Positions 15,375 through 64,000 of a stretch of DNA of 64,000 bases are shown here, in pieces; positions within the stretch are counted from its first letter, which is position 1, and every line of letters begins with the position of its first letter. A program made the translations under genes and the position numbers. Source of the stretch: Candidatus Hadarchaeum sp. (GTDB taxonomy: Archaea > Hadarchaeota > Hadarchaeia > Hadarchaeales > Hadarchaeaceae); the NCBI RefSeq assembly GCF_038871235.1, contig NZ_JAVZIN010000002.1:43043-107042 (forward strand). Direction: 5' to 3'. The notes beneath the pieces are model-generated. The model was not told the DNA's origin. It worked only from the letters and a program-made list of their open reading frames with translations, and searched no databases.

Positions 15375-15983
15375 TTGAGGGGGCAGCTGAGTATAGAGTT
15401 CTTGGCGGTCATGGCCGGTTTCTTGATCATGGTAGCTACTGTTACTCTGCCGACGTATCTTCAGGCAAACTTCGACGCGGAAAAATTGAGCAAAATCTCT
15501 GAAGCAAAAGTGGCTGCCAACGAGCTGGCAGCTGGACTGAACCATCTGTATGCAGTGGGGCCAGGTTCACGTCTGACCGTCGAATACTCGCTTCCGGCCG
15601 GGATCTTGACCATATACTTGGGAGGCTACGATAATCTTGATGTCGATGGGAGACTTACAGCGGATGAAACAGTTCCGATAAATGGCCGTGCAGACATCCA
15701 AATTCTGATGGACTTTAACGGCGATGGGTTGTGGGACAACATGCGCGATTCCATAATCACAGTGGATACGGTACTGCCCAGTCGGTGGAATGAAGACGGT
15801 ACCGACCGGGGAGAAGACTGGGTTAAGGAGAATTGTCTACACGTGGAAGAAAATGGCTTGAAAGTCGGTCCTGAGTACGGGACTCTTTCTAACAGAACTT
15901 TTCACCGAACCACGCTAATTTACTGCTACGATCCGAGCAGCCGATACCCGCGAAGGATCGTGGTCTTAGATGAAATCAGATAG
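15375..15983 (+). CDS. Class III signal peptide pilin-like protein
   Basis: MRG/QLSIEFL + hydrophobic stretch. Confidence 0.82.
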   Translation: MRGQLSIEFLAVMAGFLIMVATVTLPTYLQANFDAEKLSKISEAKVAANELAAGLNHLYAVGPGSRLTVEYSLPAGILTIYLGGYDNLDVDGRLTADETVPINGRADIQILMDFNGDGLWDNMRDSIITVDTVLPSRWNEDGTDRGEDWVKENCLHVEENGLKVGPEYGTLSNRTFHRTTLIYCYDPSSRYPRRIVVLDEIR

Positions 15984-16467
15984 ACATTATTCAAAAGGCC
16001 AATCGGCGGTTGAATATCTGACCATACTCTCCGCGGCGCTGGCCCTACTGACCTCAGTAACTCTCACCCAATCCATCAATCCATCCAAAAATGCTGCGGA
16101 TCATTCGGCATATCTAATGCAGGCAAAAGCGACAGCCAGTTCCATCGCTGGTGCCATAGATGCTGTTTATGCGAACGGGGCCGGTGCATCCAAAAGTTTA
16201 ATCGTGAAACTGGGCTGCCCCTGGACGGCCCAAATGGACAACTCGAAAAATGTCTTTAGGGTAATCTTCTGGACCATGTCGGGCGCAGAAAATTCGGAAG
16301 TCAATCTTCAGTACAAAATAAAGAAACAACACTTGCTTACAACAATCCCTCCGGGAACCTACACGGTCATCGTGACTTGGTCTGAAAACAAAAATTTTCC
16401 AGAAACTATGCAGCTGGATGTGGTCGGCGGCGGGAAAATTTACATCTATCTTAACCCACAGGGGTGA
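15970..16467 (+). CDS. Class III signal peptide pilin-like protein
   Basis: SKG/QSAVEYL + hydrophobic stretch; IDAVYANGAG. Confidence 0.82.
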   Translation: MKSDRHYSKGQSAVEYLTILSAALALLTSVTLTQSINPSKNAADHSAYLMQAKATASSIAGAIDAVYANGAGASKSLIVKLGCPWTAQMDNSKNVFRVIFWTMSGAENSEVNLQYKIKKQHLLTTIPPGTYTVIVTWSENKNFPETMQLDVVGGGKIYIYLNPQG

Positions 16468-42921: not shown

Positions 42922-43230
42922 TCAGGTTTTTAGCTCTATAGCTATAGAGACTTCCTCAGGCACCTGAACCCTCATGATCTGACGCAAGGCACGCTCATCA
43001 GCTTGCATGTCAATCAATCGTTTGTGGATCCGGAGTTCCCACCGGTCCCAAGTAATGGTCCCCTCACCGTCCGGTGCTTTTTTGGTTGGAATCACTATTC
43101 TACGTGTGGGTAATGGTACTGGACCTGAGATTTTAACGCCGACCCTCTCAGCTATACCCAATATCTGCTTGCACACTTCCTCCAGCTTCTTAGGATCCAC
43201 GCTGGCCAGCCTTATGCGTGCCTTCTGCAA
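42922..43230 (-). CDS. rpsJ: 30S ribosomal protein S10
   Basis: [21 protein letters not shown]. Confidence 0.96.
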
Positions 43231-61533: not shown

Positions 61534-62352
61534 CTAATCACCTATCATAATTTTTCTAAATATCTGGGAAAATCCGAGGTAGGTAATGAAATACCACCAA
61601 CCCACCCCGAAAACGACCAGCGGGCCAATAAAGGGAAGGTCTATTCTGATAAACGGCAACCAAGCCACCACCCATCCTTTAAAGTAACCGCTCAGCGTGA
61701 TCCACAGGATAAAAAGCGGGATCATATAGATGATGGACGGCTTCAAGGTTTGCGACGTGTTCTGCATCATCAGCTTGTTTATCTCGGGCTGCTGCAATTG
61801 AAGTTTGTGCACCAGTTTCATGTCCCTCTTCTTCATCGCCTCACGGTATTCCTTCTGGAAAGCAGCTATTTTCTCTTTGTTCTGCTTCACCAACTCCCAG
61901 TTCACCATTTTCTTAGTTATTATATTCACAATAAATGATGCCACAACACTGATGCCCAGAATTATAAAGAGAGAATATTCAAAAATTGGCGACAGATGAA
62001 CCCCCACCAGCGAAGCCGCTCTGGAGATATCTGATCGCAAAGAGAGGATATCGGTTTCAGTTGGTGTCTGAGAAACTGCTGCGAACTTGACCTTAATTTG
62101 CTCGTCAAGGGAGGAATCTGCTCCCGCCACGCTGGAGCTGAAACTAAACAGATAGCCCTCATAGGCCTGCGCAAGATGGCTTTTGGCCGAGTCGCTGTCG
62201 CCCCGGCGCAAGGATGCCGCTGAGGTGTCTAAGTTATTAATGATGCTGAAAAGATCGTCGCTATTTCCTTGCCCTTGGGCCCGAGCTAATCCTGAAAGAA
62301 TTATAGCAGATGTCAGCACCAGAGCCAGCAGAATCGGCATCTTTCTTGGCAT
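61534..62352 (-). CDS. DUF106/EMC3-TMCO1 (Oxa1 superfamily) protein with extra N-terminal secreted domain
   Basis: TM1-coiled coil-TM2-TM3 (KP...MIP, GWWYFI, FRK); canonical position between secY and rpl34e. Confidence 0.85.
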   Translation of the reverse strand: MPRKMPILLALVLTSAIILSGLARAQGQGNSDDLFSIINNLDTSAASLRRGDSDSAKSHLAQAYEGYLFSFSSSVAGADSSLDEQIKVKFAAVSQTPTETDILSLRSDISRAASLVGVHLSPIFEYSLFIILGISVVASFIVNIITKKMVNWELVKQNKEKIAAFQKEYREAMKKRDMKLVHKLQLQQPEINKLMMQNTSQTLKPSIIYMIPLFILWITLSGYFKGWVVAWLPFIRIDLPFIGPLVVFGVGWWYFITYLGFSQIFRKIMIGD

Positions 62353-62558: not shown

Positions 62559-64000
62559 TCACTCGCCAAAGAGTTTCCTAACGGCTGGGAACATTTCCGC
62601 CACTTGTTCTTTGGCTATCTCCTGATACAAGCTGTACATGATACCAACAGTCAACAGGATGCCTGTCCCGCTACCTAGTGCGCCCAAAAAGTCCGCCCCG
62701 GCCGAGAGGAACCCTACAAAGGCACCACCGAGTAGAGCCGCGGTTATGATGTAACGACTCAGTACCCACTCCATGACTCTCACATCACGCCTAAATCCTG
62801 GAATCAACATGCCGGACTCATCCAGTTGTCTCGCCACATCTCCTGGGCCCATCCCAGTCATGTGCACCCAGAGGTAAGCGAAGCCCATGCTGGCGAGAAC
62901 TAATATCGCCATATAGATGACGGCCCGAATTGGATCGGCGGCTACTTGGGCCAGTCCATTTGGGGCATCTGTGAAGTAGGAAAGCCACGGCGCATGAAGA
63001 AGGGCGGCAAATATCTTCAGATTGGCAAAAACCGTCATGGCCAAGATGACCGGAATATTTGAAGTGTAGAGGAACCTTATCGGGTAGCGTCCCCTGACCC
63101 CGCCAAACCGACCGTATGCCAGCGGAATCTCTATTCTCATGCTTTCGGCATAAACTACTATGAAAAATATAAGAATTGTCGCTATCAGTCCCATCATATT
63201 AGGCAAATGGGGTCTGAAGAACTCACTGATGACATCACCGCTGCTGAGTACCGTGCCTATCAAATTAGGGATGACGCCGGTGGCTGGGTTTAGGGCCTCC
63301 CAGACCACCGTCATGGCAACACCGCCAGCTATAAACAAACTGACCCCGCTACCGAAGCCGTATTTTGAGACCACTTCATCCAGATAGATCACCACGATGG
63401 CCCCTAGGGTTAGTTGCAGAACAAGCAGAATTCCCGCTGGGCTCAACAACCCCACACTCTTGCCATAGTTACCTGCCAGTACCAGCATCGCGCCCTCAAA
63501 AACAGCCATAATGATTGCTAAAAATTTCTGAATCCCGGTGAAGAGGGCACGGTCTTCACTCTCCGACAAATTTAAACCTATTATCTTGCTGCCCACCAAG
63601 AGCTGCATTACTATTCCCGCCGTAACAATTGGGCCAATACCTAACTCCATCAAACTGCCGGCATGACTTGCCAGAACGTATCTAAGCTGACCGAAGAAAT
63701 TTTGGGCCCCGGCATCCCAGACGCCGTTATGATTCAAATCAGTATAAGGTTCTAAAGCGGTTTCACCAGGGTCCATCACCCCGTTACCATTGGCATCAAT
63801 AAAGTCAAAGACTCCGTTACCGTTAGTGTCCACGAACGGCTCCCGCTGGGCTATGCCGTAGAGCGGAATCTGAGACATCAAGAAGAAAACAATCAGGGCC
63901 ACTCCAGTCCAGATGAACCTCTCCTTAAAAGGAACCCTTCTTTTGGGAACTGCAACTTCGGGCAAACGACGAACAATTGAATCTAATGCATAAAGCTTCG
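62559..64000 (-). CDS. secY: Preprotein translocase SecY (start just outside window) with repeat insertion
   Basis: GSLMELGIGPIVTAG, GFGSGVSLFI, YTSNIPVIL, GTGILL; frame stays open to the window end (..KLYALDSIVRRLPEV..). Confidence 0.96.
   Translation of the reverse strand, partial: KLYALDSIVRRLPEVAVPKRRVPFKERFIWTGVALIVFFLMSQIPLYGIAQREPFVDTNGNGVFDFIDANGNGVMDPGETALEPYTDLNHNGVWDAGAQNFFGQLRYVLASHAGSLMELGIGPIVTAGIVMQLLVGSKIIGLNLSESEDRALFTGIQKFLAIIMAVFEGAMLVLAGNYGKSVGLLSPAGILLVLQLTLGAIVVIYLDEVVSKYGFGSGVSLFIAGGVAMTVVWEALNPATGVIPNLIGTVLSSGDVISEFFRPHLPNMMGLIATILIFFIVVYAESMRIEIPLAYGRFGGVRGRYPIRFLYTSNIPVILAMTVFANLKIFAALLHAPWLSYFTDAPNGLAQVAADPIRAVIYMAILVLASMGFAYLWVHMTGMGPGDVARQLDESGMLIPGFRRDVRVMEWVLSRYIITAALLGGAFVGFLSAGADFLGALGSGTGILLTVGIMYSLYQEIAKEQVAEMFPAVRKLFGE

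Follow-up and report, generated by a model that had tools for sequence, protein, structure and literature searches.

The window, that is the whole stretch of 64,000 nucleotides from Candidatus Hadarchaeum sp. analysed here (positions 43,043 to 107,042 of contig NZ_JAVZIN010000002.1), ends inside a gene for the translocation channel SecY whose product carries an unusual insertion, a 46-residue module of repeated loops lodged between the first transmembrane helix (TM1) and the plug. The full-length protein, read from the whole gene in the same contig (L001), has 492 amino acids and is a SecY in sequence and fold, a real variant of a known machine. It matches all 306 positions of Pfam PF00344 (profile positions 1-306 of 306, E 1e-69), its 24 matches among PDB sequences (phmmer, E<=0.001) are SecY/Sec61 chains, and its best solved relative is the SecY of P. 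furiosus (3mp7_A, E 2.7e-115), the nearest named relatives being SecYs labelled 'Hadesarchaea/Hadarchaeales'. The operon reads S5 - L30 - L15 - SecY, followed by a gene for an EMC3/TMCO1-like protein and then by L34e, and the sequencing runs that contain the window DNA are labelled hot springs metagenome. The coordinates of the features discussed below are collected in Table 1.

Table 1. Features of the secY locus (positions in the window; residue numbers in the window frame unless stated otherwise)
Feature	Coordinates	Strand	Basis or remark
secY coding sequence, including stop	62559..63998	-	open reading frame (ORF) runs past window end; first 13 codons outside window
TM1, helix 37-56 of full-length protein	63870..63929	-	DSSP on AlphaFold2 (AF2) model; aligned to TM1 of 3mp7/1rhz
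Inserted module, R52-A98 (REPFVD...VWDAGA)	63705..63845	-	gap in PDB alignments
Unit 1, DTNGNGVFDFID	63795..63830	-	12-residue EF-hand-type loop
Unit 2, DANGNGVMDPGE, Glu at position 12	63762..63797	-	found only in three-unit forms
Unit 3, DLNHNGVWDAGA	63705..63740	-	position 12 never acidic
Plug segment FFGQLRYVLAS	63666..63698	-	aligned to 1rhz/3mp7 plug region; DSSP
EMC3/TMCO1-like (DUF106, archaeal YidC-like) protein, 272 aa, without module	61534..62352	-	PF01956, E 4.5e-17

The alignment with P. furiosus SecY falls into two pieces (query 8-52 against chain 10-54, query 99-478 against chain 56-467), which leaves 46 query residues (53-98) facing a single chain residue and without counterpart in solved SecY structures; the alignment with M. 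jannaschii SecY breaks in the same way, and module-less relatives within the phylum have six to nine residues at the corresponding site. An initial annotation of this DNA had placed such a module at 63708-63845, which corresponds to R52-G97, and had quoted its peptide exactly; the roughly 46 extra residues that it counted between TM1 and plug are what the alignment gap to 3mp7_A and M. jannaschii displays. All three D-x-N-x-N-G-V-x-D units that it described, with their EF-hand-like Dx[DN]x[DN]G loops, are present, and may equally be written D-x-N-G-N-G-x-x-D. An EF-hand loop spans 12 residues, with oxygen ligands at positions 1, 3, 5, 9 and 12 and glycine at position 6. Units 1 and 2 fit this ligand pattern and unit 3 lacks the acid at position 12, while D12 of unit 1 doubles as D1 of unit 2. 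The units follow each other at periods of 11 and 19 residues, as against a 15-residue period in SecYs with two units. In the established topology of SecY, TM1 runs from inside to outside, which puts the module on the outer face. The module also accounts for the partial match to the plug model PF10559, of which only the first 16 of 35 positions are matched (residues 36-51), because it separates TM1 from the plug and splits the model. In the AF2 model, the short helix 118-121 of the plug segment begins three residues past the module. When the 1.2-Mb genome was scanned in all six frames, SecY proved to be the sole ORF with at least two matches to D.[DN].[DN]G..[DNE], which excludes a chance origin of the units; one other ORF has a single strict match to the loop pattern.

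One might suspect an artefact, namely that the contig is misassembled, that the insertion stays untranslated, or that it is an intein or intron and gets removed; nothing was found in favour of this, and we regard it as hardly credible. The insertion is in frame, many assemblies made independently of each other contain it, and in a second study a contig spans positions 63646-63848 (203 nt) with 27 substitutions and no gap. Identical contigs from a second sample of the first study cover part of the module, those of runs X2 and X3 leave parts of it uncovered, which proves nothing, and no assembly joint across the module was seen in this comparison, which used the contigs of four runs; no RNA run was listed among those that contain this DNA. 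A stretch of 46 amino acids without splicing motifs and with homology to a protein repeat is not what one expects of an intein or intron; these and misassembly were rejected on the grounds of the gapless contig of the second study and of the purifying selection described below, which acts at the amino-acid level and shows that the module is translated.

The module recurs well beyond the window. SecY matches run through it in 11 of 41 relatives, and among 120 metagenome SecY homologues we counted 12 with three units, eight with two units (about 30 residues), 99 without module and one fragment lacking the region. The genome survey covered 66 genomes of one phylum, of which 12 have a match spanning the module: all eight of the window genus, the single genome of a second genus and three of six in a third. 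Of the remainder, 30 match the plug-side flank only and 24 have no match to the short module query. When an unrelated repeat protein (P0139) was taken as query, the same 12 module-bearing SecY genomes were recovered. A protein search limited by keywords met the module in 9 of 17 matches, each a SecY of this lineage, and the survey of genomes was confined to this phylum. The initial annotation had named misassembly, or an insertion absent or unconstrained in relatives, as grounds on which its reading would fall; the first is contradicted by the assemblies, and the second by the counts just given (12 of 66 genomes in the phylum, 20 of 120 homologues from metagenomes) and by the selection acting on it. 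In one metagenome-assembled genome, G022, SecY (G022:C31:5218-6595) matches in two pieces that lie in different open frames of 293 and 238 amino acids (query 2-246 and 256-479), possibly through a frameshift or an assembly error, with the module in the first piece.

The strength of this selection was estimated from 28 pairs among eight genomes of the window genus. Pooled over the module, the proportion of synonymous differences (pS) is 0.844 and that of non-synonymous differences (pN) 0.096, a ratio of 0.114, and the rest of SecY gives 0.715, 0.083 and 0.116; both ratios are rough because synonymous sites are near saturation. One genome pair differs in the module by 25 synonymous and no non-synonymous changes. 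There is thus clear evidence of translation, and of a constraint on the module no weaker than that on the rest of the channel. The constraint falls on the positions expected of metal ligands in the first unit, where all 25 distinct modules have D1, N3, N5 and D9, 24 of them G6 and 23 an acid at position 12. The last unit is kept in much the same way (D1 and N3 in 25/25; N5, W8, D9 and G11 in 24/25; G6 in 23/25). The middle unit is intact in 11 of the 16 distinct three-unit modules and degenerate in five (P0009-P0013), which have lost ligand-type residues there (e.g., Q at position 9) and have kept units 1 and 3 intact; hence the outer two units carry most of the constraint.

Some peculiarities of the module residues deserve mention. 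The window module differs from those of all seven congeners at two non-ligand positions (63717-63746, minus strand): Y85, two residues ahead of D1 of unit 3, where the congeners have F, and H90, at position 4 of unit 3, a site occupied in them by G or N and in the two-unit P0016, P0018 and P0019 likewise by H. By eye, the module contains no N-glycosylation sequon. It holds six Asn-Gly dipeptides, the sequence most prone to spontaneous deamidation, and given the hot-spring source a conversion to Asp, or a protection by metal, is conceivable.

How the module came to be distributed as it is was considered on a tree of 95 SecYs from which the module columns had been removed (quick IQ-TREE run, LG+G4, support from the Shimodaira-Hasegawa-like approximate likelihood-ratio test, SH-aLRT, only). 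The states of no, two and three units require at least nine changes on this tree, and forcing the 30 module-bearing rows together costs 459 log-likelihood units (approximately unbiased test, p-AU 0.00015), with the caveat that this group was defined after the tree had been seen. Three module-less SecYs with six-residue loops (P0015, P0017 and P0020) nest in the three-unit clade of the genus (SH-aLRT 100), and their state looks like loss by deletion. The module-less P0034 lies inside a two-unit clade (98), and P0030, with two units, lies inside a module-less clade and keeps the loop flanks of that clade. Outside the loop, identity is 96-97% between P0018, which has two units, and P0031, which has none, the loop of P0031 (IPKGQQVSE) being identical to that of P0028. 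P0019 agrees with another genus in all of its first 50 residues, the rest being about 72% identical. Such patchy presence therefore implies gains, losses or recombination, and the sequences point to repeated loss together with exchange of the N-terminal segment through recombination as the probable course of events, bearing in mind that chimeric metagenome contigs could mimic part of the pattern. The two-unit form consists of two canonical units of 15 residues, between which the three-unit form seems to have gained an extra one.

This history invites the thought that the module is no more than a tolerated passenger, a fragment of an extracellular Ca2+-loop repeat that landed in a permissive outer loop, has no part in translocation, and on which selection acts only to keep it folded and harmless, on the premise that a misfolded peptide beside the plug would be damaging. 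The nesting of module-less forms in module-bearing clades, the near identity of P0018 and P0031 outside a loop in which they differ by the whole module, and the decayed middle unit of P0009-P0013 all agree with it. So does the finding that no SecY column co-varies with the module (criterion: a residue in at least 85% of module-bearing and at most 20% of module-less sequences), so that the module behaves as a self-contained add-on, and the existence of plug-deletion SecY structures (2yxq, 2yxr) suggests that the region tolerates change. Against a passenger speak the low pN/pS of the module, equal to that of the rest of SecY within the limits of near-saturated synonymous sites, and its retention in eight of eight genomes of the genus and in two further genera; moreover, all 13 matches to the repeat within the phylum fall in SecY or in a neighbouring insertase (see below), which would be odd for random landing. 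On balance we consider a passenger unlikely, yet it is the alternative that we take most seriously.

Where do such units come from? A 79-residue piece comprising the end of TM1, the module and the plug was searched with phmmer against 1.84 billion representative proteins; 720 of these matched at E<=1e-3, among them 107 at E<=1e-10. Those ranked 1 to 150 (best E 9.7e-37) are proteins of 292-6275 amino acids, each matched in 3-28 stretches, and all of them carry at least three matches to the motif (range 3 to about 50). The 2026 units of these 150 proteins have D1 in 100%, N3 in 89%, G4 in 45%, N5 in 80% and G6 in 100%, then D9 in 89%, G11 in 54%, E12 in 73% and P13 in 32%, with an aromatic residue just ahead of D1, which is the consensus of an EF-hand-type loop of 12 residues. 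The commonest spacings of units are 22, 15, 12 and 11 residues, and the unit pairs include periods of 22 (n=311), 15 (n=149), 11 (n=38) and 19 (n=32). P0139 and like proteins are plain arrays of EPFTDxNGNGxWDxG, and the module aligns over its whole length with P0139 (BLASTP E 3e-13, 30/51 identical, 59%). It also aligns with the loop region of P0123, a protein of the SdrD_B family (BLASTP E 2e-8), which matches the solved SdrD of S. aureus, where the repeats read ...EDTNKNGIQDQDE.... A passage of PMC3775735 ascribes to every Sdr B motif an EF-hand loop of consensus type for Ca2+, reported to be functional in SdrD, and has SdrE stabilised by Ca2+.

Of 12 repeat proteins submitted to Pfam, eight matched no family, two SdrD_B and one PD40 repeats, and the twelfth had only a weak sub-threshold match; neither the module nor any of five repeat proteins reached an NCBIfam threshold. 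The cluster names of ten repeat proteins are all 'hypothetical protein', their sources being one metagenome-assembled genome (MAG) each of Gammaproteobacteria, Chloroflexota and a 'bacterium', besides an ocean sample. In the ESM Atlas, P0139 met 'hypothetical protein' clusters and surface proteins of the Big_1/invasin type, all from Bacteria, and the module itself no usable match; a PDB sequence search with P0139 returned 0 matches at E<=1. To judge from these alignments, the module is a member of a widespread, unnamed and mostly bacterial extracellular tandem repeat, EPFxDxNGNGxxDxGE; with SdrD B domains and with EF-hands it has the Ca2+ loop in common, and it stands outside either domain family. 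A second P0139-like gene that could have been its source was not found with the P0139 query in five module-bearing genomes or in the phylum survey, the MAGs being incomplete. Other families were considered and set aside: neither the thrombospondin type 3 repeat nor dockerin is among the six Pfam families listed for the module (E<=10), a whole SdrD_B domain is not compatible with a module of just 46 amino acids that matches only 18 profile positions below cut-off, and a canonical EF-hand domain is not either, since the module has no helices in either AF2 model and the Pfam EF-hand matches stay below threshold.

The AF2 model of the full-length protein, made from a 96-row alignment, has the SecY fold with a mean predicted local distance difference test score (pLDDT) of 85.7; Foldseek aligned it to 1rhz_A with E 6.6e-27 and a target-normalised TM-score of 0.82, one of 67 matches at E<=0.001. 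Within this model the module has pLDDT 74-85 and neither helices nor strands, apart from isolated beta-bridges at the aromatic residues two positions ahead of each D1. Folded alone, from ten sequences, its core reaches pLDDT 89-94 in the best model.

From the conservation of the motif and its homology, Ca2+ binding by the units is likely, and we lean with moderate confidence towards the view that the module is a lineage-specific, selectively maintained mini-domain of the outer face, a Ca2+-rigidified accessory at the hinge of the plug. Two or three EF-hand-type loops (D1-x-N3-G-N5-G6-x-hydrophobic8-D9-x-G-E12) would have been spliced in frame into the loop between TM1 and plug, and each unit would take one Ca2+ from the medium, the sites presumably being occupied all the time. 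The metal would then give a peptide devoid of helices and strands the shape of a rigid knob, set on the rim of the outer vestibule at the N-terminal hinge of the plug. It is tempting to go one step further and to conjecture that the knob stiffens or weights this hinge and so biases the plug to the closed, sealed position, which might matter at high temperature; the plug is credited with stabilising the closed state and maintaining the seal in the title of PDB entry 2yxq. The module would be an accessory tuning part and not a Ca2+ switch, a structural role being favoured because sites exposed to the medium are probably filled at all times. Its loss, gain or exchange among close relatives shows that it is not essential.

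Several observations weigh against this accessory role at the hinge. Module-less SecYs that nest in the genus clade or stand beside two-unit forms indicate that the module is dispensable, its middle unit has decayed in one subgroup, no column elsewhere in SecY tracks it, and position 12 of the last unit is V, A, T or L in 25 of 25 distinct modules and an acid in none. Pfam searches with the module alone returned GEVED, DUF7151, EF-hand_6/5/1 and SdrD_B, all below cut-off: the EF-hand models fall on unit 2 with E 0.018-0.07 and 13-15 bits for cut-offs of about 25, and SdrD_B (PF17210) matches positions 6-23 of 112 with E 0.19 and 12.4 bits for a cut-off of 29.7. Among PDB sequences the module by itself finds only weak matches (E>=0.015), 17 of the 19 rows being EF-hand loops. 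Only two of the five models of the isolated module are confident, and where the knob stands with respect to the funnel is deduced from the topology alone. Finally, the isolated module gave a single row at E 7 with Foldseek against the PDB and nothing at Z>=2 with VIA-align against 48,161 chains; a short loop-only model being a poor query, this failure says nothing about novelty.

The initial annotation had proposed a more dynamic role, in which channel gating or stability could depend on cations. In a gate of this kind, occupancy of the loops would follow external Ca2+ and switch the mobility of the plug, and translocation or sealing would depend on it. The loops do adjoin the plug helix, three residues off, and loop-only modules of the DxDxDG type, having no hydrophobic core, typically fold only with metal. 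According to passages of PMC8147068, Ca2+-calmodulin and BiP modulate the gating of eukaryotic Sec61, in trans and at other sites. Yet the sites face a medium, that of hot springs, in which Ca2+ would not be expected to fluctuate as a signal, sites of the EF-hand type would be saturated at ambient Ca2+, and near-identical relatives manage without the module; a Ca2+-dependent gate is thus very unlikely in our eyes.

One further finding concerns the membrane-protein insertase encoded next to secY. In G052, the EMC3/YidC-like protein (P0288; L036:1265-2170, minus strand; G052:C6) carries a two-unit module of its own, GEPFTDSNGNGRYDEGEPFDDLNGNGVWD, and its gene lies two genes downstream of a secY that is itself without module. 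This insertase has 302 amino acids against about 272 in its relatives, and the window orthologue is gapped exactly at the module, which occupies the N-terminal part of the protein, past a signal-peptide-like start and ahead of the first transmembrane helix, and should accordingly be extracellular. Across the 66 phylum genomes the P0139 query gave 13 matches, 12 in SecY and one in this insertase. We treat the latter as a lead because it is a single case from a MAG that is 56% complete; among 120 insertase homologues it is the only one with a module. A recent transfer of DNA between the two modules was considered and rejected, with 55 of 84 bases and 10 of 28 third positions identical. The window EMC3/TMCO1-like protein likewise has a signal-peptide-like start and about 125 residues ahead of its Pfam domain, and in G052 an ORF that by eye resembles a P-loop kinase lies between secY and the insertase gene, where the window has no kinase gene.

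The confinement of the 13 matches to SecY and to the exoplasmic N-terminal domain of one insertase raises the prospect, also voiced in the initial annotation, that the Ca2+-loaded knob is a docking point for an outer partner at the exit sites of the machines for membrane-protein biogenesis, be it the neighbouring insertase, the lower side of the S-layer, or a chaperone or peptidase on the exoplasmic side. In its other carrier proteins the repeat is extracellular and surface-associated, in keeping with docking, and the idea gains a little from the G052 insertase. The insertase case is nevertheless confined to one genome, the third-codon identity of 10/28 shows that the module DNA of the two proteins was not recently shared, and a segment may pass between neighbouring genes with no function behind it, all of which leaves docking improbable. 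A broader proposal, for which we likewise see only a slim chance, would see in the module an exoplasmic part that is portable and reserved for the machines of membrane-protein biogenesis in the phylum, a built-in outer effector or docking point that might seal, ratchet or organise the exit site with Ca2+ and be swapped by recombination; in this respect it could be regarded as a counterpart in cis of BiP at loop 7 of Sec61. The rigid accessory at the plug hinge remains, in our opinion, the best reading.

Comparison with known systems helps to define what is new. With other archaeal SecY/Sec61-alpha proteins (1RHZ, 3MP7) the window SecY has in common the full SecY fold, the plug segment and the S5-L30-L15-SecY position in a ribosomal-protein operon, and it differs by 46 additional residues at a site where they have essentially no loop. 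With the Ca2+ loops at the start of SdrD B domains it shares the 12-residue D-x-N-x-N-G-x-x-D-x-x-E, without the CnaB-like beta-sandwich of about 110 amino acids that forms the remainder of such a domain. Likeness to the unnamed repeat (P0139, P0255, P0228) extends to non-ligand positions, with E-P-F before D1, an aromatic residue at position 8, G11 and E12, and to the 15-residue period of the two-unit SecY forms; however, the repeat proper occurs with 3 to about 50 motif matches in soluble or surface proteins, and the SecY module as two or three units in a loop of a polytopic channel. Canonical EF-hands such as those of calmodulin and obelin agree at loop positions 1, 3, 5, 6, 9 and 12, whereas the SecY module lacks the entering and exiting helices, is extracellular instead of cytosolic, and lets consecutive loops share an Asp. 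As for Sec61, a passage of PMC8147068 presents BiP, at luminal loop 7, and Ca2+-calmodulin, at an N-terminal IQ motif, as elements outside the pore, one of them on the side that corresponds to the exoplasmic one, that shift the balance between open and closed states, with a link to Ca2+. These effectors are separate proteins acting at other sites, in contrast to a module built into loop 1 whose effect on gating is conjectural.

SecY/Sec61 is among the most conserved of membrane machines, how its plug seals and opens is a central question, and the known modulators of gating act in trans. Within the library searched, our literature searches turned up no SecY/Sec61 described with a folded or metal-binding insert at the plug, in agreement with the initial annotation, to which the architecture was unfamiliar among described translocons; the present protein would be the first case found of a folded, probably metal-binding module inside the plug-carrying loop. 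The natural versions with zero, two and three units in near-identical channels form a series through which effects of mass and rigidity at the plug hinge could be followed, with bearing on sealing, stability and signal-sequence gating, and the natural allele pairs that are 96-97% identical outside the loop make an effect on plug gating directly testable. Beyond SecY, a large unnamed family of extracellular repeats gains a context and a testable function, that of a Ca2+-folded rigid spacer, and we learn that an extracellular repeat can enter a polytopic membrane protein and stay there under selection.

A later outer loop had also been described as shortened. This holds in comparison with P. furiosus and M. 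jannaschii and fails as a feature linked to the module: as delimited for the comparison the loop measures 31 residues in 31 of 65 module-less and in 20 of 20 three-unit SecYs, and since its length is the same in both, the short loop is unrelated to the module and is a lineage-wide trait. In most of the phylum's SecYs, with or without the module, this TM7-TM8 outer loop (about 62920-63010, minus strand) is short; in 13 of 95 rows (e.g., L010 and L029) it is extended by 13-16 residues, which makes it a second outer loop that varies.

As for the other strict match to the loop pattern, DFNGDGLWD (DxNGDGxxD), it lies in the ORF 15375-15983 (plus strand), which adjoins the ORF 15970-16467 (plus strand). 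No Pfam family was matched by either of the two ORFs, the N-termini of which resemble by eye the archaeal class III (type IV pilin-like) signal peptides.

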